A program made the position numbers and the translations under genes. The notes beneath the pieces were generated by a model. The model worked only from the letters and a program-made list of their open reading frames with translations. It was not told the origin of the DNA and made no database searches. This document shows positions 23,375 to 38,252 of a stretch of 64,000 nt of DNA, one piece after another. The DNA is from Nitrososphaerota archaeon. GTDB lineage: Archaea > Thermoproteota > Nitrososphaeria_A > Caldarchaeales > Calditenuaceae. How positions within the stretch are numbered: the first letter of the stretch is position 1; each line of letters opens with the position of its first letter. The stretch is taken from NCBI GenBank assembly GCA_038845265.1, contig JAWBQR010000006.1, positions 56,637 through 120,636 on the forward strand. Reading direction: 5' to 3'.

Positions 23375-25687
23375 TTAAACTATTTCCAATAATTTAAGAA
23401 TGAATGCCTGACCAGCTGATATGCATCCGTCATTCGGGGGGAGTCTTTTACTCATTTTGAGGATTAAACCGGAGTTTTTTAAGGACGATTCAATTCCTTG
23501 AATAATGTACTCATTTACGGCTGCACCACCACTAACATAAACAACATTACTTCCATAATTAAGTGCTTCTTCTAGTGCTGCATTGCCAAGTAGTTTCCCA
23601 ATAATTAATTGTGCAGTGTACGCAATATCTTGACTTTTCGTATTATCTATCAGATCGACTAATTGACGAATTATCTCCGTCGAAGGAATGATTCCATCCT
23701 TGTAGTTAATTAGGTCTGAAGTTAATAGTTTAATTTCTCGCCCATTACTAGCATGTTCTTCAAGCAAAATTGCTGGTTCACCCTCATATGTACGCTCTTT
23801 ACATAATTGCAAAAGGACAGAAACGCTATCAAGTACTCGGCCGGTGCTAGACGTTAATTGTCCCCTTCCAGATTTAGCCAAAGATATACATTGTTGGAAC
23901 TCTTCGAAGCCGTGGGGAAAATAATGAATTAATCCTCTTCTCTCGAATAATCTTACGATTTCTTCTTCACTCAATATTTTGCTTAGAATTGATACAAGCA
24001 TTCTAGCCGGATATTTAGTAGCTAGGTCTCCTCCAGGCATAATTTGATACTCGAGATGAGCTTTTCTTTCAATTTTTTCAGAATCCCATGTAAGTATCTC
24101 GCCTCCCCAGATTGCTCCATCCTCGCCATATCCTGCACCATCAATCGTTATTGCTACAGCTGGTTCATCAATGTCGTGTAGATTATCAAGCATGGCTGAT
24201 GCCATATGCGCTTTATGATGCTGAACTTTGATTAGCTCCGATCCATATTTATTACTCCAATTTTCAGCAAGAAGAGAAGAACTATAAAGAGGATGTAAAT
24301 CAGAAACTATGATTGCGTCTTTTGGATTGATTTTGTAATAATTACATAACCTATAGAGATATTTCTCAAGGTCCTTATAACACTCGTATTCATCAACATC
24401 GCCGATATATTGTGTAGGAATTATTTTGTTGTCTATCGCTATCGCGCCCGTGCTCTGTAGATCTGAGCCGAATGCGATGACAGGTCTACTGAATCTTAGA
24501 TTAGTTTCTATCCATCTAGGCGCATACCCTCTCCCTCTTCTTAAGAATACTGCCTCGCCCCTAGTAAACCTAATGACTGAGTCATCAACTCTGTTTATTA
24601 TACGTCTATTATGTACTAGGAAATAGTCTGCCACACTTGTCAACTTCTTTAAATCCTCTTCACCAATTATCATGGGATGACCAGTAGGGTTTCCGCTTGT
24701 CATTATTGCAAATTTATCCTTAATATTCATCAATAAGAGATAATGAAGCCCCGTATATGGTATGAAAACTCCCAAGGTGTTTAGTCCTGGTGCTACTAAA
24801 GGAGAAACATTAGCATCAGCAGTCCTAGGCAGAATTAATATCGGTCTCTCATAACTCAGCAGTAATTTCTCAGCCTTATCATTTACCAAAACAAGTTTTT
24901 TTAAAATCTCAAGATTTAATGCCATTATAGCGAAAGGCTGTCTTGGACGATGCTTTCGGAGGCGTAGCTTTAAGACAACCTCGTCATCAGATGCTAGGCA
25001 TGCTAAATGGTAGCCTCCAATGCCTTTGACAGCCACGATGCATCCTTCATTTATCAGTTTGGCGGTTTCAAGAATAGGGTCTCTGACATTTAGCAATTTT
25101 AAATCGTTGTCAAGTAGATTTAGTCTCGGCCCACAATATGAACAGCTGATTCCCTCTCCGTGGAATCGTCTTATATCTGATACATTATTATATTCTTCAA
25201 TGCAGCTGGGACATAGCGGGAATTCTTTCCAACTAGTGTTATCTCTATCGTAGGGTATACTTTCAATGATAGAATACCTTGGACCGCACCATGCACATGA
25301 ATTAAACGCATATGCATATCTCCTATTTTCTTTGTCGAGGATCTCTTTTAGACACCACTCACAGATACTTATGTCTGGAGGAACTTCAGAAATGAGGAGG
25401 GAGTCTGAAGAACTTTTATGAATAGTAAATTCATTGAAGTTGTTTGGTTTCGCGTCATTAATTATTATTTTTTCTATCTTTGCTGTCGGAGTTATACCTT
25501 TTTCTATGGATTTGATGAAAAGTTCAACTTTTCTGTCTTCACCCTCTACCCAGATCTCGACTTCTCCTCCACCCAGGTTTTTTACATATCCATTTACTCC
25601 TACACTTAATGCGAGACGAGTGATGGCGGGTCTGAATCCTACACCCTGAACAACGCCAGTGACAGTTATTCTAACAGCCCTTAGCAT
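23375..25687 (-). CDS. hypF: Carbamoyltransferase HypF
   Basis: VQGVGFRP acylphosphatase domain; CxxC zinc fingers; KGIGGYHL, DLHP, QHHKAH, DGAGYGEDG, PPNDG. Confidence 0.95.
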   Translation of the reverse strand: MLRAVRITVTGVVQGVGFRPAITRLALSVGVNGYVKNLGGGEVEIWVEGEDRKVELFIKSIEKGITPTAKIEKIIINDAKPNNFNEFTIHKSSSDSLLISEVPPDISICEWCLKEILDKENRRYAYAFNSCAWCGPRYSIIESIPYDRDNTSWKEFPLCPSCIEEYNNVSDIRRFHGEGISCSYCGPRLNLLDNDLKLLNVRDPILETAKLINEGCIVAVKGIGGYHLACLASDDEVVLKLRLRKHRPRQPFAIMALNLEILKKLVLVNDKAEKLLLSYERPILILPRTADANVSPLVAPGLNTLGVFIPYTGLHYLLLMNIKDKFAIMTSGNPTGHPMIIGEEDLKKLTSVADYFLVHNRRIINRVDDSVIRFTRGEAVFLRRGRGYAPRWIETNLRFSRPVIAFGSDLQSTGAIAIDNKIIPTQYIGDVDEYECYKDLEKYLYRLCNYYKINPKDAIIVSDLHPLYSSSLLAENWSNKYGSELIKVQHHKAHMASAMLDNLHDIDEPAVAITIDGAGYGEDGAIWGGEILTWDSEKIERKAHLEYQIMPGGDLATKYPARMLVSILSKILSEEEIVRLFERRGLIHYFPHGFEEFQQCISLAKSGRGQLTSSTGRVLDSVSVLLQLCKERTYEGEPAILLEEHASNGREIKLLTSDLINYKDGIIPSTEIIRQLVDLIDNTKSQDIAYTAQLIIGKLLGNAALEEALNYGSNVVYVSGGAAVNEYIIQGIESSLKNSGLILKMSKRLPPNDGCISAGQAFILKLLEIV

Positions 25688-26736
25688 ATCCTTGGAACCG
25701 GATCACCAATAGGCGGAGGAATGATTCTTTTACCACCAATAGTTGTCTCTAAAATTACACCTTTAAATGAATCGGTAACGTATCCGATTATACTTGCTTG
25801 GCTCCAACCTGAATTCTTAATTGATTCAAGAATTTCTTCGGCCTTATCGTTTATGACACTCATTACAACCTTTCCTTCGTTTCCAACCTCAAGTATGTCG
25901 ATGCCTAACAATTCAGACGCTGCCTTAGCTGCTGAACTTATTGGTAATGCGTCTTCTCTAATGACGAATCCGAGCCCTGTATTTTCTGCCCACTCATTTA
26001 ACAATCCAGCAAGTCCTCCCCTTGTCGGGTCTTTTGCGCAAGTAACGCCGCCGACCTTCAATGCCTCTCTCATCAATTTATTTAGAGGGGCTACGTCTGA
26101 TTTTACGTCTGATTTAAAGCCCAATTCTCCACGCGCAGCAAGAATTGCTACTGCATGGTCGCCGAGGGGGCCATTCAAAATTATCTTATCTCCAGCCCTA
26201 ATGTTTTTAGTTATAAGCCACATCGAGGAATGGTCATCCCTACTTCTCTTAATTATTTCGTAGTTTTGCATTAATTCTTGGCCGGGTACCCCTATGCCGG
26301 AACAGTTAATCAAGAGTTTATCGACTCGGCCCTTCTCAACTACTTTTGTATCACCAGTAATTATTGAGGTTTCTGCCTCAAGAGCTGCCTCCCTCATGCT
26401 GTTTAAGATCTTTTCAATATTGGAAATCTCAAACCCCTCTTCGATTATTAAGCCGCAAGATACTCCAAGAATTTTTGTTGCTCCTTTAACTGCTAAGTCA
26501 TTAATTGTTCCGCACACAGCCATCCTACCGATATCGCCTCCTGGAAAGAATAGTGGATATACAGTGTACGAATCAGTTGTAAATGCTATACCGTTAACAA
26601 TTGCTGAATCTTCAAGGAGATAGAGAGGTACATCAATATTCCTGGATAAATCACCAAAATATTTTAAAACATACTTATGAATAAATTGCAGCATATATTT
26701 TCCGCCCGCGCCGTGAAGCATTGTAACATTATTCAT
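25681..26736 (-). CDS. hypE: Hydrogenase maturation protein HypE
   Basis: HGAGG, TTDSY, GDTKVV, DPTRGG; C-terminal PRIC. Confidence 0.95.
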   Translation of the reverse strand: MNNVTMLHGAGGKYMLQFIHKYVLKYFGDLSRNIDVPLYLLEDSAIVNGIAFTTDSYTVYPLFFPGGDIGRMAVCGTINDLAVKGATKILGVSCGLIIEEGFEISNIEKILNSMREAALEAETSIITGDTKVVEKGRVDKLLINCSGIGVPGQELMQNYEIIKRSRDDHSSMWLITKNIRAGDKIILNGPLGDHAVAILAARGELGFKSDVKSDVAPLNKLMREALKVGGVTCAKDPTRGGLAGLLNEWAENTGLGFVIREDALPISSAAKAASELLGIDILEVGNEGKVVMSVINDKAEEILESIKNSGWSQASIIGYVTDSFKGVILETTIGGKRIIPPPIGDPVPRIC

Positions 26737-26742
26737 TGTTGA

Positions 26743-27555
26743 TCACTTATTCTTGGGTTTAGAAATAAACTGTTCAAGCGCCTTAGCAAAACCTTCTGGA
26801 AGCTCGATGGACTCCGTTAAAGAGGTATCGGTACATACTCCGACAGTGTAAATATCAGCTGCTAGCTTATTAGAAGTTTTATTCCAGACAAAATTGCGGA
26901 ACTTCACATGTTTTCTACCTATTTCTTCAACCCAGACAATTACTTCGATCTCATTGTCCAACCGGACTGGAGAGAGTATTTTTCCCCCCGTCTCGACTGT
27001 CGGTATGAAACGGCCGAATTTATGTATCAGTGTTGAGTATCCAAACCCAACGCTTGCTAATAGCTCTTGTTGACACCGCTCACAGAACTTGAAATAATTA
27101 GTATAATGCATAACCTGTAAATAATCCGTGTCTGAAAGAGATATTTTATATGTCCTTTTGAAAGCATTGCTAGGAATTTCTAACTTATCTTTTGTATCAA
27201 CTTCATCATCTTCGTTTATATCTTTACCTACCCCCTCAATGTTTTGGGCATCGAGGCCAAGACTTGATAATAATTTTTTAAAATCCGCCATAGCTTTAGA
27301 ACTCGCTTCCTCAGGGCTAAGCCCCATTTCTCTATAGTTTATTTCTGCTAACTCGGAATACAGCGCCAAATTTGTCGCTACATCTTTAGGGTCCATTTTT
27401 CCAATTATAACTCCTGCGTGAACCATTACAAAATCATTTATATTTACATCGTCTATCGCCAATAGAGCTTCCCTGACTACGCCTCCAAAATCTATCTTGG
27501 CTATTTTATTTTCATTATCAATTTCTAAAACTTTACCAGGTGCTCCCCAACACAT
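26743..27555 (-). CDS. hypC: HypC chaperone fused via an acidic linker to a hot-dog acyl-CoA thioesterase (4HBT/YbgC-like) domain
   Basis: N-term MCWGAPGKV...DFGGV...VMVHAG (HypC Cys2 and His); C-term SDTDYLQVMHYTNYFKFCE, SPVRLDNEIEV, EIGRKHVKF; single 270-aa ORF. Confidence 0.85.
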   Translation of the reverse strand: MCWGAPGKVLEIDNENKIAKIDFGGVVREALLAIDDVNINDFVMVHAGVIIGKMDPKDVATNLALYSELAEINYREMGLSPEEASSKAMADFKKLLSSLGLDAQNIEGVGKDINEDDEVDTKDKLEIPSNAFKRTYKISLSDTDYLQVMHYTNYFKFCERCQQELLASVGFGYSTLIHKFGRFIPTVETGGKILSPVRLDNEIEVIVWVEEIGRKHVKFRNFVWNKTSNKLAADIYTVGVCTDTSLTESIELPEGFAKALEQFISKPKNK

Positions 27556-27558
27556 ATC

Positions 27559-28785
27559 TTATTCCCCTTTATTGATTAGTGAATTTTTAATGTCTCCATG
27601 TTTTGCCCATACATTACATGTCCCCTCAATCGATACCATGCATGGTCCCCACGGTGTCTCGGGCGTGCATGATTTCATAAATAGTGGACAATCTGTTGGT
27701 TTGGATATTCCGAGCACTACTTCCCCGCATCTACAGTTAGGAGGCAAATCGTACTTCCCGGGCTCTCCGAAATGCGCATGAGTCATAACATACTCAGAAG
27801 GTGAAGCGTCAGGTATACCAAAATACTCAAAGGCATCATAGATCTTCCTGAAATCTTCTCGAAACATTAATCCACTTCTCGCTATCATGCCAATCCCCCT
27901 CCAGGCGGCGTATGTGGGCTGAAAAACCTCATTCACCATTTTTTTTACATAAGAGTTACCATTAGGTTTAACTAACCTTTTGTACTCGATTTCTAGTCTT
28001 GGTTTTTGGTTATCAATCATTTTAAGAATTGTTGCGATCGCCATTAGTATATCTATTGGCTCAAATCCCGTAACAACGGTTGGGAGACCGAAGTTTTCAG
28101 GAAGAAATCGCCACTCATAACCGCCAATGACGGCCGAGACATGTCCAGGCGCTATGACCCCCATTATAGGGAGTAATCCTCTTTCCTTGTACAGCTTTAC
28201 AGTAAACTTCATCGCTGGCGGAGTGAGACGTACAAGACTCATGAACTTAAGGTTGGTTGGTACCTCTCCCTTATAAAAGAAGAAGCCGTAAATAGGTAAA
28301 ATTGTCTCAAAGCCTATTCCGAGAAATATGCTTTCCTTTTTATGTGTTTTTGCGTCTTTTATGGCGTCAAAAAATGAATAGACAACTTTGACTTCAGCGC
28401 CCAGGGACTTTGCTTCATAAAGAGATCTTGCTGGTGTTTTAGGCCTACTTGAAGGAAGCCTAAGTGCATCGCCATATGTATAAATAGTATATCCTTCAAG
28501 TGCAAGCTTAATAGACATATCTATGTAGTTTGACGGCACTACGCATACTGGGCAGCCTGGACCGGCTACAAGCTCTATGCTTCGTGGCAATAAGCTCCTC
28601 AATCCATAATGCGTTATAGCCCATTCATGCGTACCGCAGAAATGCATTATCTTAATTAATGAATTATTTTCGAATTGTTTTTTCATGATTTTCTCTGCAT
28701 ATTTTTTGATTATTCCAATTAATGATGAAGCAAGTTCACGGTTGCTTCGAAATATATCCTGAACAGTTCTCAGCTCTGGTTGCAA
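27559..28785 (-). CDS. hypD: Hydrogenase maturation protein HypD
   Basis: CGTHE, GPGCPVC, GFET, PGHVS, CRCGEV...CPLF...GPCMVSIEGTC. Confidence 0.95.
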   Translation of the reverse strand: MQPELRTVQDIFRSNRELASSLIGIIKKYAEKIMKKQFENNSLIKIMHFCGTHEWAITHYGLRSLLPRSIELVAGPGCPVCVVPSNYIDMSIKLALEGYTIYTYGDALRLPSSRPKTPARSLYEAKSLGAEVKVVYSFFDAIKDAKTHKKESIFLGIGFETILPIYGFFFYKGEVPTNLKFMSLVRLTPPAMKFTVKLYKERGLLPIMGVIAPGHVSAVIGGYEWRFLPENFGLPTVVTGFEPIDILMAIATILKMIDNQKPRLEIEYKRLVKPNGNSYVKKMVNEVFQPTYAAWRGIGMIARSGLMFREDFRKIYDAFEYFGIPDASPSEYVMTHAHFGEPGKYDLPPNCRCGEVVLGISKPTDCPLFMKSCTPETPWGPCMVSIEGTCNVWAKHGDIKNSLINKGE

Positions 28786-29261
28786 TTAATATGGTCACCT
28801 CTTCTAGTAATTTTCATAATGATGTCAAAAACATTCTTTGTAATTGAATCCAATTTTTCGGAAATTTCTAGTGAAATATTATCTCCAATTGTATATGGAT
28901 CTTTTGTTTCAATTGCAATTATATGTATAAAGTTAGGACGAAGTAATTCTAGTGCATGGATAGCCATCAAGGCTTCAGGAAGTCCTGCATAATGAGGTGA
29001 AAACACAGACATGGATTTCATTAAATCCCCATCCAGTTCGTATACGTGTCCTACTGGATGTTTGTTGCTTCTTATACCATCAACTATTATGACCATGTCG
29101 TAGCCGTGAATGTAATCTAGTAATGAGAGTCCTGTTTTTTCTAAGATATGCGTATCAATACCCATTTTTTCTAGTTCTCCCATCAGACGTTTCCCTACTT
29201 CTATTCCTACGGCATCATCCCTGTAAATAGGATTACCGAGGAATAGAACGACTACTTTCAC
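28770..29261 (-). CDS. Hydrogenase maturation endopeptidase (HycI/HybD family)
   Basis: GNPIYRDDAVG, IIVDG and SPH motifs; directly downstream of the large subunit. Confidence 0.9.
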   Translation of the reverse strand: MKVVVLFLGNPIYRDDAVGIEVGKRLMGELEKMGIDTHILEKTGLSLLDYIHGYDMVIIVDGIRSNKHPVGHVYELDGDLMKSMSVFSPHYAGLPEALMAIHALELLRPNFIHIIAIETKDPYTIGDNISLEISEKLDSITKNVFDIIMKITRRGDHINCNQS

Positions 29262-29267
29262 AGCCGA

Positions 29268-30728
29268 TTATAAATTATGCCGAACTACATTAAGTAGTTT
29301 GCCATTCATGTCATAAATGTATACAGCTAGTGGCATATTCCCCGGCAGTGAATGAGTTCCACACGCATGGCATGGGTCATAGGCCCTAAACGCCATCTCT
29401 ATCATGTTTAATATACCTTCATTTATCTGGCCTTGTCTGATCAATTGTTTTGCTGCCTTATCAATTGATAAGGCAATTCTTGCAGCATTGTTTTGTGTAG
29501 CGACTATGAGATTAGCCTGTTTAACTACTCCACGTTCATCAGTTATGTAGTGATGTATTAATGTGCCTCGAGGCGCCTCAACGACTCCCATACCTTCACT
29601 TGGTTGATCTTTAGGAATATTTCTTATATTTTGATCAGTTATATCAGGATCATTTGCTAATTCCTGAATTCTTTCTGCTGCATAAATCATCTCTATCACC
29701 CTTGCCCAGTGGTTTGCGAGAGTGTGATGAACAGGTCTACCAATCATCGAAATCATTTCCTCAAATGCTGATTGTGCCTCATGTGTAGGTAATGATTGAG
29801 AAACATTAAGTCTCGCAAGGGGTGCTACACTATATATCCCGCTATCTTCTCCATCAATGAATCCTTTCCAACCTATTTTCTTTAGGAAAGTGAATTTAAT
29901 ATATGTCCATGGCTCAACATGTTCTCCAACATATTCTAAGTACTGATGTACATCAAATTTAGCAAATTCATTACCCTTTGGGTCGACTACTCTTATTTTT
30001 CCATCATAGAAGTTGAGCTGGTTCTTCTCATCAACTAAACCCATATAATAGGTTCTATGTGTATATGCATCGCTAGTTATAAGATTGAAGTATTGGTCAT
30101 TACTTAATACTAGAGTTTTAAACAGCTTCATGGTAAATTTTGCAAATTCTACAGACTCTTCTGCTACTTGTTTTATTTTTTCTAACTCATTATTTTTTAT
30201 TGGTCTTGAGACTCCGCCAGGCACTCCTGATACTGGATGGATTGTTTTACCACCCAGCATTAGATTTATTTCTCTAAGTTTTTTACGAATTGATATAACT
30301 CTTAGCACATTTTCTTTACCAACCTTGTTAATTACTCCCAGTATGTTTCTTTCTTCTTTAGGTGAAGTCGGTCCAACTATGAAATCTGGTCCTCCTAATA
30401 TATAGACGTGGAGAGCGTGGTCTTCAAGCATGAATATGTTATACATAAGTTCTCTAATCTTTCTGGCAGTCAGTGTTGGAGGGCAATTATAGAGGTCATC
30501 AAGCGTTTTCGTAGAAGCCATGTGATGCGCCATAGGGCAGACACCGCATATCCTAGCAGTGATTTGCGGCATGTCCTCGACTGCCCTTCCCTCGGCAAAT
30601 TTTTCAAATCCCCTGAGTTCTGGTATTTGGATGTATGCTCGGTCCACGTTTCCAACATCATTTATAAATATGATTATCTTCCCATGTCCTTCAAGCCTAG
30701 TTATTGGGTCAATTACTATTTCTCTCAC
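29268..30728 (-). CDS. mvhA: [NiFe]-hydrogenase large subunit, group 3c (MvhA-like)
   Basis: TRLEGHG; RGFEKF; L1 RICGVC; L2 EMAFRAYDPCHACGTH followed by a cleavable C-terminal tail. Confidence 0.92.
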   Translation of the reverse strand: MREIVIDPITRLEGHGKIIIFINDVGNVDRAYIQIPELRGFEKFAEGRAVEDMPQITARICGVCPMAHHMASTKTLDDLYNCPPTLTARKIRELMYNIFMLEDHALHVYILGGPDFIVGPTSPKEERNILGVINKVGKENVLRVISIRKKLREINLMLGGKTIHPVSGVPGGVSRPIKNNELEKIKQVAEESVEFAKFTMKLFKTLVLSNDQYFNLITSDAYTHRTYYMGLVDEKNQLNFYDGKIRVVDPKGNEFAKFDVHQYLEYVGEHVEPWTYIKFTFLKKIGWKGFIDGEDSGIYSVAPLARLNVSQSLPTHEAQSAFEEMISMIGRPVHHTLANHWARVIEMIYAAERIQELANDPDITDQNIRNIPKDQPSEGMGVVEAPRGTLIHHYITDERGVVKQANLIVATQNNAARIALSIDKAAKQLIRQGQINEGILNMIEMAFRAYDPCHACGTHSLPGNMPLAVYIYDMNGKLLNVVRHNL

Positions 30729-31711
30729 TTTCTCACACTCCTGAGAATATTTCTTAAGCCTGATTTTGGAAGCGAGTATTTGTAAATTAAACCTAAAATG
30801 TCCGGGAGCTTTGAGATTTCTTTTCTTATTTGTTCTTCATCTTCGAGATCTAGTATACTGCCAAGGAAGGATATCGCCTTTCCTCCATAATCATGAATAT
30901 TGTCAAGTGGTCCGAAGCAGCCTGTGCAGGGCATGTTAGCTTTAATGCAGAGCGCACTGCATCCTCCTCTCGTCACAGGACCTAAGCAGGGCAATCCTTG
31001 AACTAGGAGACACTGATTTGGGTCAGGCACGAAGTGGACTACTCGTTTAAATTCTTTAATTAATACATTCTCTGGCTTTGTATCATTAAGCGGACATTCA
31101 TTGCATAACGATTTGTTGCTGGCTCCTATCACTGAGCCCTTGCTGGGAAGCTTTCCTGATAATAATATATTGATCGCTTCCCAAGTAACTTCAGGTGTTG
31201 GTGGACATCCAGGCACGTAATAATCTACGGTAATAACCTCGTCAAGAGGCTTGAGGCTAGGTAAAAATTCTGGTAAATCAATTTTAGCACCATTGATTTC
31301 TACAGGGCGAGTCTGGGAAGGTATTATTTTCTCAGGATTAACAGTAGTGGGCGTAGTTATATAGGCCCTTTCAAGTATCTCCTCTCGTCTATAATTGTTT
31401 GCTAGTCCAGGAATTCCTCCCCAACATGCACATGCTCCATATGCCACGACGAACATAGATTTTCTCCTCAGCAATTTTACTATCTTCTCATGTTCGGATA
31501 AACGAACACCGCCATTAATGAAGCTCACAGTTATTGAATCATCTGGCATAGCCTCTATGTCCGGGATCTTGAAGTCCATGGCGACAGGCCAAAACACGAT
31601 ATCGACAAGATTAACCACATCTAAAATTTTCTCACCTAAGTCTACTACTGCTTCTTCGCATCCACCACAGCTTGCGCACCAATAAAATGCAACTTTTGGA
31701 CGTATACTCAT
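30725..31711 (-). CDS. mvhG: [NiFe]-hydrogenase small subunit (MvhG-like)
   Basis: [45 protein letters not shown]. Confidence 0.92.
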
Positions 31712-32145
31712 ACGGCTTCGACCTCTAATTTGACTGGGCCTAATCTTTTCAGATCTCTAACCATTTCATTTACTACTTGTACCCACTTATTTGCTTCCGA
31801 TGCTGATATCCATTCAAGTCTGAATCGCTCCTTTTCGATTCCTAATTCCTCTAACAATCTTCGGAATAAGCTATAACGTCTAAGTGCCTTTATGTTTCCA
31901 CTAATGTAGTGACAATCAGAAGGTGGATGGCAACCGGCTACGATTACACCATCAGCACCCTGCTCAAATGCCGCGAGGACGAATTGTGGATCAATACGTC
32001 CAGAACACATGACTCTGATAACTCTCACATTTGGCGGATACTGCATCCTACTAGTTCCGGCTAGGTCAACAGCAGCATAGGTACACCAATTACAGGCGAA
32101 TACAACAATTTTAGGCTCGTAGTCATTAGAGCTCATTTTAGTCAC
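31708..32145 (-). CDS. mvhD: [2Fe-2S] adaptor subunit MvhD
   Basis: [27 protein letters not shown] and WISASE motifs. Confidence 0.95.
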
Positions 32146-34078
32146 CTTTTATTAATGCCAAAACTTGAGCTAGTACCTGTCTGTCCTTAAAGCTATACTG
32201 CTGCATCGCTCCTGATGGACATGCTGCAGAACAAGTACCGCAACCCATGCATAATGCTCTCTCGACGTAGGCAATCATTCTTCCATTAATTTCTTTGAGT
32301 GAAATAGCCTTATATGGACATAAGCCCACGCAGATCCTACAACCACTACACAATTCATCATTTACGGTGGCTACAAATGGTTCAGTCTTGACTTTTCCTT
32401 TTGATAAGAGAGCAGCCGCCTTAGAAGCAGCGGCACTTCCAGTTCTAATACTCTCAATAATGTTTTTTGGCCCAGTAACTGACCCTGCTAGAAAGATGCC
32501 TTGGGTAGGAGCTTCTACTGGATTAAGCTTGAGATGCGCTTCTCTGAGAAATCCATCTGTGCCACAACTAGCTCTGGTAACTGCAAGTAGGTCTATAAGA
32601 TCCCTTCTCGGAATCATACCTACCGATAAAACGATTAAATCTACCGGTATGCTTATTTCTTCCTGAATAGTGACTTCATATACGTCAATTAAAATTCCTT
32701 CAGGGCCAATGTCCACTACTGGGGGTTCCTCAAATTTGATGAACTTAATGAGATGCTCTCCGGCCCTCTCATAAAGACTTTCATCATTTCCATAAGTATT
32801 GATGTCTTGGTAAAGAATAAACACATCTGTTTCAGGATACTTTTCTTTTATTTTGATCGCATTTATCAATGTAGATGTGCAGCACATCCTTGAACAATAA
32901 CTCTTAGAATTGGGCGTTGTATTACGCGAGCCTACGCATAATATAAAAGCGATTCTTTTAGGTATCGTTCCTCCTATTATTAATTTTCCCTGAGTTGGGC
33001 CGTCTTTATCTAAAAGTCTCTCTAGCTGGAATAGCGTAATTACATTATTATGAAGACCATATGCATATTCGCCCTTTGGTGGAATGTATGGATCATATCC
33101 AGTAGCTATGATGAGTGCTCCAACATTTAAATCCAACAATTTAGGTTGCTCAGATAAATCGATTGCATTAAACCTACATGCTTTTACGCACTCGCCACAC
33201 TTGATGCAGACTCTTTGATCTATAACATACATGAGTGGATAGGCTGTCTTAAATGGATAATAGATGGCTTTTCTTCTTGATAATCCATATTGATACTCAT
33301 CTGACAATTCGATTGGGCACTCAACTTCACATTCTCCGCACAAAATGCATTTTTCATTTATATACCGCGGATTTATTCTGATTTTTGCTTTAAAGTTGCC
33401 TGGAAAACCACCAAACTCGATTAGTTCAGAATTTGTGAATACGTGGATCTTTCTATTCTCTGCAATTTTGTTAATTAAATTATTTACTACATCGGCACCT
33501 CTTCTATCACTTTCAAGCCATCCGGTTAGGGCGGCTCTCCCCCCAAGCGTGGGGCTTTTCTCAACTAAATAAACTTCAAATCCATATTCCGCAAGGTCAA
33601 TTGCAGCCCTCATTCCAGCGACGCCACCGCCAAGCACCAAAACGGCGGGATATGTCTGAAACTCTGTCTCTTCCAATGGTTCTAGGAGAGCGGCCTTGGC
33701 AACAGCCATCCTAATTAAGTCCATAGCCTTCTTAGTGGCTGCTTCTCTATCAGAATGAGCCCATGAGCAATGCTCCCTGATATTTGCCATTTCTAATAAG
33801 TACTTATTCAGTCCTGCACTTTCTATGGCGGACCGGAATGTAGGTTCATGCATTGAGGGTGAGCAAGCAGCAACTACAACTCTATTCAAATTATGCTTCT
33901 TTATCTCTTCCTTTATCAATTCTTGGCCTACAGTTGAGCACATAAACACATAGTCGTGACTCACTATAACATTCGGAAGTTTCTTTGCATATTCACTGAC
34001 TGTTTTAACATCTACTTTTGAGGCTATGTTATGTCCACAATGACAGATAAATACTCCAACCCTAGGCTCAATACTCAT
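32138..34078 (-). CDS. hdrA: HdrA-family flavoprotein, 646 aa (N-terminal Cys domain, FAD domain, inserted and C-terminal ferredoxins)
   Basis: [31 protein letters not shown]...YCSRMCC, four CxxCxxCxxxC motifs. Confidence 0.9.
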
Positions 34079-37841: not shown

Positions 37842-38252
37842 TTGATGCATGAATTCACCGTAGCAATGGGGATTGTAGATTCATTAAAAGAATTATATTT
37901 AAACAAGGGTTTCAAGATTAATAGTTTCAAGATAGTTATCGGTGAATTATCGATGTTTAATCCAAGCATAATTAATGATCTTGTTAGAGAATTAATTAAG
38001 GAAACAGAATTAGAAAACACTAAATTTAAAGTAATTATTGAGGAAGCAAAAATCAAATGTGAATCATGCAATGAAACTCACAGCTTTAATGAACTCTCAA
38101 AACAGTTAAGTGAGGAAGAAAAAGAGATGATTCATTTTATTCCTGAATTAATTTCATCATATATGAAGTGTCCATCATGTAGTAGTAGAGATCTAAAGAT
38201 TATGAGTGGGAGGGGAGTAAAGGTGATTGACATTGCGTTGCAAAAACGATAA
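37842..38252 (+). CDS. hypA: Nickel metallochaperone HypA (long, Thermococcales-like insertion)
   Basis: MHE N-terminus; CESC and CPSC separated by EKEMIHFIPEL; SGRGV. Confidence 0.92.
   Translation: MMHEFTVAMGIVDSLKELYLNKGFKINSFKIVIGELSMFNPSIINDLVRELIKETELENTKFKVIIEEAKIKCESCNETHSFNELSKQLSEEEKEMIHFIPELISSYMKCPSCSSRDLKIMSGRGVKVIDIALQKR

Follow-up and report, generated by a model that had tools for sequence, protein, structure and literature searches.

Why would a chaperone of [NiFe]-hydrogenase maturation carry a thioesterase at its C-terminus? The question is raised by a gene in a 64,000-nucleotide stretch of DNA from a hot-spring Nitrososphaerota archaeon (GenBank assembly GCA_038845265.1, contig JAWBQR010000006.1, positions 56,637 to 120,636), which we call the window. 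At window positions 26743..27555 of the minus strand, a gene for 270 residues plus a stop codon joins HypC, the chaperone, to a 4HBT-type hot-dog domain of the kind found in thioesterases acting on acyl-coenzyme A (acyl-CoA). An initial annotation, made from the letters alone, had described one uninterrupted open reading frame (ORF) here, which the list of ORFs bore out, and had suggested that the added domain could supply or regulate the carbonyl ligand of the hydrogenase iron. The fusion proved to be conserved across archaeal lineages, with its catalytic aspartate retained. We tentatively propose that the thioesterase might handle the CO-ligand precursor, and we weigh this against other roles and against the sister lineages that do without the domain.

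Architecture and distribution of the fusion

Both families named in the initial annotation were recognised by Pfam above their curated cut-offs: HupF_HypC (PF01455) on residues 1-65 (E 1.4e-17, 64 bits against a cut-off of 28.5), 4HBT (PF03061) on residues 147-230 (33.5 against 20.6 bits) and 4HBT_2 (PF13279) on residues 140-260 (31.7 against 25.5 bits). Judged by sequence, the protein is a member of both the HypC family and the 4HBT hot-dog superfamily. The AlphaFold2 (AF2) model, with a mean predicted local distance difference test (pLDDT) of 80.3, divides it into four parts, all encoded on the minus strand, as is every feature below unless stated otherwise. Residues 1-55 (27391..27555) form the HypC beta-barrel, with strands between residues 5 and 54. 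Residues 56-106 (27238..27390) form a two-helix extension (helices 56-76, 81-98 and 103-106) common to a group of "extended" HypCs without a thioesterase. Residues 107-127 (27175..27237) are an acidic, variable and disordered linker, with pLDDT below 50 at 110-120 and alignment columns that vary in length and sequence. Residues 128-270 (26746..27174) are the hot-dog domain, as defined by Pfam, the solved structure 5v10 in the Protein Data Bank (PDB), Foldseek and 30 invariant alignment columns. The order of HypC, acidic linker and thioesterase had thus been read correctly, and the acidic stretch KDINEDDEVDTKD and the thioesterase motif DTDYLQVMHYTNY are present as described; the extension of about 50 residues before the linker had been overlooked.

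The barrel carries the hallmarks of HypC, namely the MCWG start with Met-Cys2, DFGGV and VMVHAG, and both Cys2 and His46 of the last motif are near-invariant across the family alignment. We take His46, in the VHxG strand, to be the counterpart of His51 of Escherichia coli HypC. The description of this half as a canonical HypC holds for the motifs and the PF01455 score, but not for the NCBIfam model hypC_hupF (TIGR00074), whose cut-off is missed (42.8 against 48 bits). The fusion resembles the HypC/HybG/HupF chaperones (PF01455) in its barrel with Cys2 and the VHAG histidine, in its position beside hypD, hypE and hypF, and in being a sole copy. It differs from the known stand-alone HypCs, whose canonical frames measured 72-108 residues here, by the two-helix extension, the acidic tether and an enzyme domain of 143 residues.

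The fusion is not a singleton, an outcome that would have undone the initial annotation. A search of a 5.8-billion-protein collection gave 932 candidates, among which 44 proteins matched at E <= 0.001, and 43 of these carry both domains (42-99% identity, 216-282 residues). Their source names include Hadarchaeota, Hadarchaeales and "Hodarchaeaceae" metagenome-assembled genomes (MAGs), and others are labelled acyl-CoA thioester hydrolase. The remaining match (P0044) is a thioesterase alone, 152 residues long and 63% identical, with all motifs of the family; it may be a genuine split form or a shortened gene call. With the thioesterase domain as the query against 1.84 billion cluster representatives, only four matches reached E 1e-30 or better, and each is a fused protein. 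The nearest stand-alone cluster (P0047; 153 residues, 40% identity) followed at E 1.4e-30, and beyond it the scores fall to ordinary YbgC-like proteins at 1e-20 and weaker. A Hyphomicrobiales locus considered as the genomic context of P0047 turned out to be an unrelated match. A metagenome scan added seven stand-alone thioesterases at 28-32% identity. The only one of them inspected (L020) lies apart from any hyp genes and resembles an ordinary YbgC-like gene. With one of the seven inspected, no unfused homologue in another hyp operon, a possibility raised at the outset, was found. A search for longer architectures returned no larger fusion, which is weak evidence, and one for shorter architectures returned a 60-residue fragment only.

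Scanning one genome per species located 12 fusion loci. By record title, one belongs to a "Nitrososphaeria" MAG (76% identity) and one to an "uncultured archaeon" (70%). Of the other ten, eight come from MAGs named Hadarchaeota, Hadesarchaea or "Hodarchaeaceae", and Geoarchaeota and Desulfurococcales contribute one MAG each. In all 12, hypD stands immediately upstream of the fusion. The complete synteny of an Mvh-type hydrogenase with the hyp genes is confined to two loci (L002 and L003), and the outer neighbours in three further loci examined differ and are unrelated to hydrogenase. Because hypD is constant while the outer neighbours vary, the conserved unit is the pair of hypD and hypC::thioesterase. 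Two of the Hadarchaeota loci have a ThiS-family gene no more than about 1 kilobase (kb) downstream of the fusion (L011, 8783-9094; L005, 9815-10831). ThiS is fused to ThiF in L005, and genes for XdhC and a class-V, cysteine-desulfurase-like aminotransferase are also near in L011. This proximity may be a coincidence. We found no paper describing a HypC-thioesterase fusion in the full-text literature searched, outside which most subscription journals fall.

Could two neighbouring genes have been joined in error by assembly or gene calling? Two contigs from the Logan collection span hypE, the fusion and hypD and come from two studies other than that of the source assembly. One of 14.9 kb (X5) differs by 6 substitutions and one of 4.7 kb (X11) by 10, and neither has an indel. 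A contig from a third study (X7) crosses the linker of the fusion. The stop or frameshift in the linker that could have spoken against a true fusion was absent from the independent contigs. Since 43 fused homologues exist and contigs from independent studies are free of indels, neither chance nor an artefact explains the fusion, and we give the artefact virtually no credence. Short contigs from an RNA-library run (X20) cover parts of the thioesterase half and hypE, which is no proof of transcription.

The fusion is also the only HypC available to its host. In the source genome (G000; 1.37 Mb, 93% complete) it is the sole match to PF01455, both in the cluster, as the initial annotation had stated, and genome-wide, and it is the sole match to PF03061. 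Among other fusion-bearing genomes, it is the only HypC match in nine of ten. The fused protein must therefore be a working chaperone. The tenth carrier (G041) has an extra short hypC spread over two frames of 43 and 36 residues (G041:C18:12436-12626), probably either a canonical copy in decay or the result of a sequencing error. The source genome encodes a second [NiFe]-type large subunit in a 417-residue frame (G000:C8:57380-58336), matching NiFeSe_Hases and Complex1_49kDa, which from these matches is likely to be a group-4 membrane-bound hydrogenase. Both hydrogenases, the Mvh-type and the group-4-like one, would rely on the single fused HypC.

Pfam confirmed HypD, HypE and HypF as neighbours, in line with the hypD-hypC-hypE-hypF block first proposed. 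The same-strand order runs from an HdrA-like protein through MvhD, the small subunit, the [NiFe] large subunit, a HycI-type protease, HypD, the fusion and HypE to HypF. The hypD gene (27559..28785; 408 residues; Pfam HypD, 392 bits) ends 3 nucleotides before the start codon of the fusion. Six nucleotides past the stop of the fusion begins hypE (25681..26736; 351 residues; Pfam AIRS and AIRS_C; C-terminus PRIC), followed by hypF (23375..25687; Pfam acylphosphatase, zf-HYPF, Sua5/YrdC and HypF_C). The gene for the HycI-type hydrogenase maturation protease (Pfam HycI) lies at 28770..29261. Directly upstream and in the same direction, 29268-34078 (minus strand) encodes the Mvh-type hydrogenase (MvhA/G/D) with the HdrA-like flavoprotein. 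On the opposite strand, some 10 kb away from the hyp block, is a hypA gene (PF01155, 70 bits; window ~37845-38234, plus strand; G000:C6:94481-94870).

The thioesterase active site and the adjoining HypD loop

The thioesterase half is most similar in sequence, among solved structures, to 5v10 (E 3.3e-12), followed by 1z54, 2egi and 1s5u in a range reaching E 3e-3. These relatives are YbgC-like acyl-CoA thioesterases and 1,4-dihydroxy-2-naphthoyl-CoA (DHNA-CoA) thioesterases. Foldseek matched the model to YbgC-like structures at E ~1e-10 to 1e-11, with template-modelling (TM) scores of 0.81-0.89 when normalised to the target, and the modelled domain has the central helix (154-168) and four long strands of a hot-dog fold. 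Of the 44 database matches, 29 were aligned with the window protein. In these 30 sequences, the thioesterase half has 30 invariant columns, which include Ser141, Asp142, Asp144, Tyr145, Leu146, Gln147, Val148, His150, Tyr151, Asn153, Cys158, Glu159, Arg160, His178, Arg198, Asp200 and Asp243. No column is invariant in the HypC half, in part because the N-terminus is missing from three rows, and no more than nine positions there are near-invariant. As far as the alignment tells, the thioesterase half is conserved more strictly than the HypC half.

The active-site segment SDTDYLQVMHYTNY covers residues 141-154 (27094..27135) and was placed by alignment with solved YbgC-like thioesterases. Its Asp144, the equivalent of the catalytic aspartate, is invariant in 30 of 30 sequences and aligns with the aspartate of the DTD or ETD motif in 5v10, 1z54 and 2egi; the putative catalytic aspartate noticed at first sight is indeed retained. 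Passages of PMC516016 identify Asp17 of the Pseudomonas 4HBT enzyme as the catalytic nucleophile and add the backbone NH of Tyr24, at +7, as the second feature that is conserved. Tyr151 of the fusion is invariant and likewise stands at +7 from Asp144. The surrounding signature is another matter. The PROSITE pattern PS01328, as quoted in PMC516016, reads [QR]-[IV]-x(4)-[TC]-D-x(2)-G-[IV]-V-x-[HF]-x(2)-[FY]; compared by eye, KISLSDTDYLQVMHYTNY departs from it by Lys in place of Gln or Arg, Gln147 in place of Gly, Met149 in place of Val and Tyr151 in place of His or Phe. The NCBIfam cut-offs were missed as well, both for YbgC/FadM (TIGR00051; 50 against 68.7) and for the tol-pal YbgC equivalog (46.6 against 141.35). 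The thioesterase signature first reported is accordingly present in its Thr-Asp core, but not as the strict PS01328 pattern or the YbgC/FadM family. Read from the alignment, the catalytic residue is kept, but the loop that would position the thioester has a remodelled form specific to this family, in which Tyr145-Leu146-Gln147 is invariant. The AF2 model is unsure at this loop, with pLDDT below 50 at 145-150.

Compared with the YbgC/4HBT class I thioesterases (5v10, 1s5u/5t06 and 1z54), the domain has the same fold, the same Thr-Asp position and the tyrosine at +7. Unlike YbgC, it lies outside any tol-pal context, is fused to HypC, and has an invariant Tyr-Leu-Gln where PS01328 demands x-x-Gly; Cys158, His178 and Cys241-Thr-Asp are specific to this family. 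Cys158 lies within FCER and shows no variation; Cys241, within VCTD, is near-invariant (window ~27082-27084 and 26833-26835). Together with His150 and His178, these cysteines are absent as features from the ordinary YbgC proteins in the alignments examined.

Does such a domain have to be an enzyme at all? A hot-dog dimer or tetramer could simply join two or four HypC-HypD units. Enzymes of the 4HBT type are oligomeric according to passages of PMC516016, and the binding of two HypC-HypD (HypCD) heterodimers to a HypE homodimer, reported in parts of PMC12134894, offers a comparable arrangement; the long flexible tether of the AF2 model would be compatible with it. Yet oligomerisation has no need of the invariant Asp144, Ser141, Asp142, Tyr145, Gln147 and His150, and we regard a purely structural module as unlikely.

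The neighbouring HypD also has a feature that follows the fusion. Just before its C-terminal CxC, HypD has a loop (residues 329-345; 27751..27801) with the motif THAH at 335-338, identified by aligning the C-terminal 120 residues of 20 HypDs. THAH is found in 11 of the 13 HypDs that adjoin a fused hypC; the remaining two, L012 and L013, have a degenerate version. It occurs in none of the seven HypDs that adjoin an extended hypC without a thioesterase. Of these, six show a deletion or unrelated sequence at this point, and the seventh (L036) has a loop of equal length that is degenerate. In a fused protein whose source name and percent identity match L013 (P0036), Ser-Ala-Asp replaces the Cys-Thr-Asp motif of the thioesterase. 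From the sequences, the THAH loop could be a docking or metal-binding loop. The window HypD is 56-62% identical to HypDs of carriers in other lineages and 51-53% identical to those of its own family. Because it is closer to the former, these comparisons of percent identity and of the loop, drawn from small and phylogenetically confounded samples, point to a hypD-hypC::thioesterase pair that evolves, and probably moves, as a unit.

A possible role in handling the CO ligand

What could an acyl-thioester enzyme contribute to the assembly of the Fe(CN)2CO group? Where anaerobes obtain the CO of their [NiFe]-hydrogenases is called "the most pressing" open question in the portions of the 2025 review by Sawers and colleagues (PMC12134894) that bear on it. 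The same portions describe the decarbonylation of formyl-CoA to CO by HypX, suggest that HypD might act likewise if formyl-CoA were available, present formyl-CoA as a proposed anaerobic route and mention that AccB co-purifies with HypCD. The initial annotation had sketched this background, with HypX acting through formyl-CoA and the anaerobic source open, accurately. In passages of Haase et al. 2024 (PMC10847431), every HypC adduct requires Cys2, among them the adducts of +26 and +28 Da on E. coli HypC, read as possibly acetyl-derived and formyl, respectively, and the authors propose that the CO precursor arrives bound to Cys2 of HypC.

With these reports in mind, we propose that the fusion might be a genuine two-function maturation protein, in which the thioesterase processes a short acyl thioester into the CO ligand. 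It is the reading that we prefer, although we hold it to be possible but well short of an even chance. The N-terminal 106 residues would serve as an extended HypC that, with the HypD encoded upstream, carries the Fe(CN)2CO group. The flexible acidic tether would keep a catalytically competent, remodelled hot-dog thioesterase beside the HypCD scaffold. The domain might bind formyl- or acetyl-CoA, or either acyl group when carried on Cys2 of HypC; the acyl thioester would then be processed at the HypCD site, and its carbonyl carbon would become the CO ligand on the iron. The sequences establish how the fusion is built, its conservation, its linkage to hypD, the retained aspartate, its standing as sole HypC and the dispensability of the domain in sister lineages; we infer the substrate, the contact with HypD and the link to CO. 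A thioester enzyme some 20 disordered residues away on the very protein that bears Cys2 fits the idea of a Cys2-bound precursor. A stronger version, in which the domain acts with the HypD THAH loop as an anaerobic synthase or donor that turns the carbonyl of formyl- or acetyl-CoA into Fe-bound CO on HypCD, seems doubtful to us. A predicted complex of HypD, HypC(1-108) and the thioesterase domain gave the thioesterase a score of 0.00, which speaks neither for nor against docking.

If the proposal holds, the domain would be an accessory anaerobic counterpart of HypX. The likeness is a proposed functional analogy, in that HypX, as far as passages of PMC12134894 describe it, also acts on a CoA thioester in hydrogenase maturation and is likewise accessory and patchy in its distribution. 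The two are not homologous: HypX is a separate protein of aerobes with a formyltransferase and a crotonase-like domain, whereas the fusion contributes a hot-dog domain. In Pfam, the fusion has only the HupF_HypC and 4HBT-type domains and does not show the domain set of HypX. The sole ECH_1 match in the source genome is a 266-residue frame, and ECH_1 is not a probe specific for HypX.

Lineages without the thioesterase domain

Is the domain needed where hydrogenase is matured? In the order to which the window belongs, HypC occurs in 27 of 41 genomes, and long open HypC frames (271-293 residues) occur in only three, all of the window's genus. The arrangement of hypD, hypC and hypE recurs in a sister genus, with a hypC of 98 residues and no thioesterase. 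We sampled a further 61 genomes from the phylum of another carrier (G044). The fusion (frames of 270-351 residues) is present in eight and an intermediate, extended HypC (frames of 111-152 residues) in eleven, while one has HypC fragments only and ten have no match. Six of the eleven extended-HypC loci were examined. The HypC that comes after hypD in L034 and L035 has ~95-112 residues and stops within the linker, and no thioesterase gene follows. The family profile aligned with the HypC part only in four thioesterase-less genomes (positions 1-105 to 1-117), and with positions 1-262 in a carrier used as a positive control.

The extended HypCs of these sister archaea (L031, L034-L038) share with the fusion the hypD-hypC order, the barrel and the helical extension; identity is 81% between two of them and as high as 60% with a fused member. 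Unlike the fusion, they end in the linker, their HypDs lack the THAH loop, and a thioesterase was not found elsewhere in the genomes searched. Because such close relatives end in the linker with no thioesterase elsewhere, the domain is accessory. The HypC of L035 is only 36% identical to the window protein, and those of L036 and L037 resemble a fused subgroup (P0006/P0012) different from the fused protein nearest to L035 (P0032). Going by percent identity, the simplest reading is an ancestral fusion followed by at least two independent truncations at the linker.

Several of these observations weigh against a role in making the CO ligand. Of the 61 genomes in the carriers' phylum, 31 have a canonical short HypC only, and most anaerobes lack the domain. 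With the thioesterase domain of the window as the query, no thioesterase was found in any of five extended-HypC genomes, and the HypC of one thioesterase-less locus (L035) is 60% identical to that of a fused protein (P0032) over the HypC part. To judge from their genes, sister lineages mature their hydrogenase without the domain, which is dispensable there, and the need for a thioesterase in the supply or regulation of CO is weakened. Hydrolysis, the usual chemistry of the fold, would destroy the precursor rather than deliver it. Finally, the correlation of the THAH loop with the fusion is confounded by relatedness among only 20 sequences.

Hydrolysis would be an advantage if the domain is an editing enzyme that removes stray S-acyl groups from Cys2 of HypC or from nearby cysteines of HypD and HypE, or that depletes acyl-CoA locally. 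It would thereby keep the N-terminal cysteine free. By our own chemical reasoning, this cysteine could be acylated by thioester exchange and then blocked by an irreversible S-to-N acyl shift, which would be worse at high temperature. Hydrolysis is native to the fold, the catalytic aspartate is invariant, and loss of the domain in sister lineages suits a role that is helpful but not essential. Acyl-type adducts on Cys2 of E. coli HypC are abundant in the data given in passages of PMC10847431, and all carrier records and sequencing runs examined came from hot or deep habitats, including runs labelled "hot springs metagenome". On the other hand, a generic clean-up hydrolase would not obviously need 30 invariant residues, a remodelled loop and a co-varying loop in HypD, and the harm done by acylation of Cys2 is assumed. 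We consider editing rather unlikely, though worth keeping in view.

Repeated loss without replacement would also be expected if the domain were an ordinary acyl-CoA thioesterase, or a sensor of CoA or acyl-CoA, coupled only loosely to hypC, with a regulatory part at most and no chemical role in cofactor assembly. Public records indeed label members of the family as acyl-CoA thioester hydrolase or HypC, and the nearest solved relatives are general YbgC-type enzymes. A loose association hardly accounts for a fusion that was kept across lineages at 42-76% identity and always beside hypD, for the lack of any close stand-alone form except two clusters of 152-153 residues (P0044 and P0047), or for a thioesterase domain more conserved than HypC itself. 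We regard it as quite improbable.

The impact of the fusion is limited by its rarity, with about five clusters at 50% identity among the 1.84 billion cluster representatives, and by its dispensability in close relatives. Even so, a thioester enzyme that is tethered to the protein bearing Cys2 and kept beside HypD offers a direct handle on the idea that a thioester takes part in hydrogenase maturation. HypD and HypC::thioesterase make up a small two-protein test system, for which the thioesterase-less sisters provide natural controls. An editing role, if that is what the domain turns out to have, would nevertheless demonstrate that Cys2 acylation is of consequence in vivo. Should it be a synthase or donor of CO, Rosetta-stone logic would suggest that thioester chemistry at Cys2 is the general anaerobic route to the carbonyl ligand, carried out elsewhere by enzymes that are not linked to HypC.

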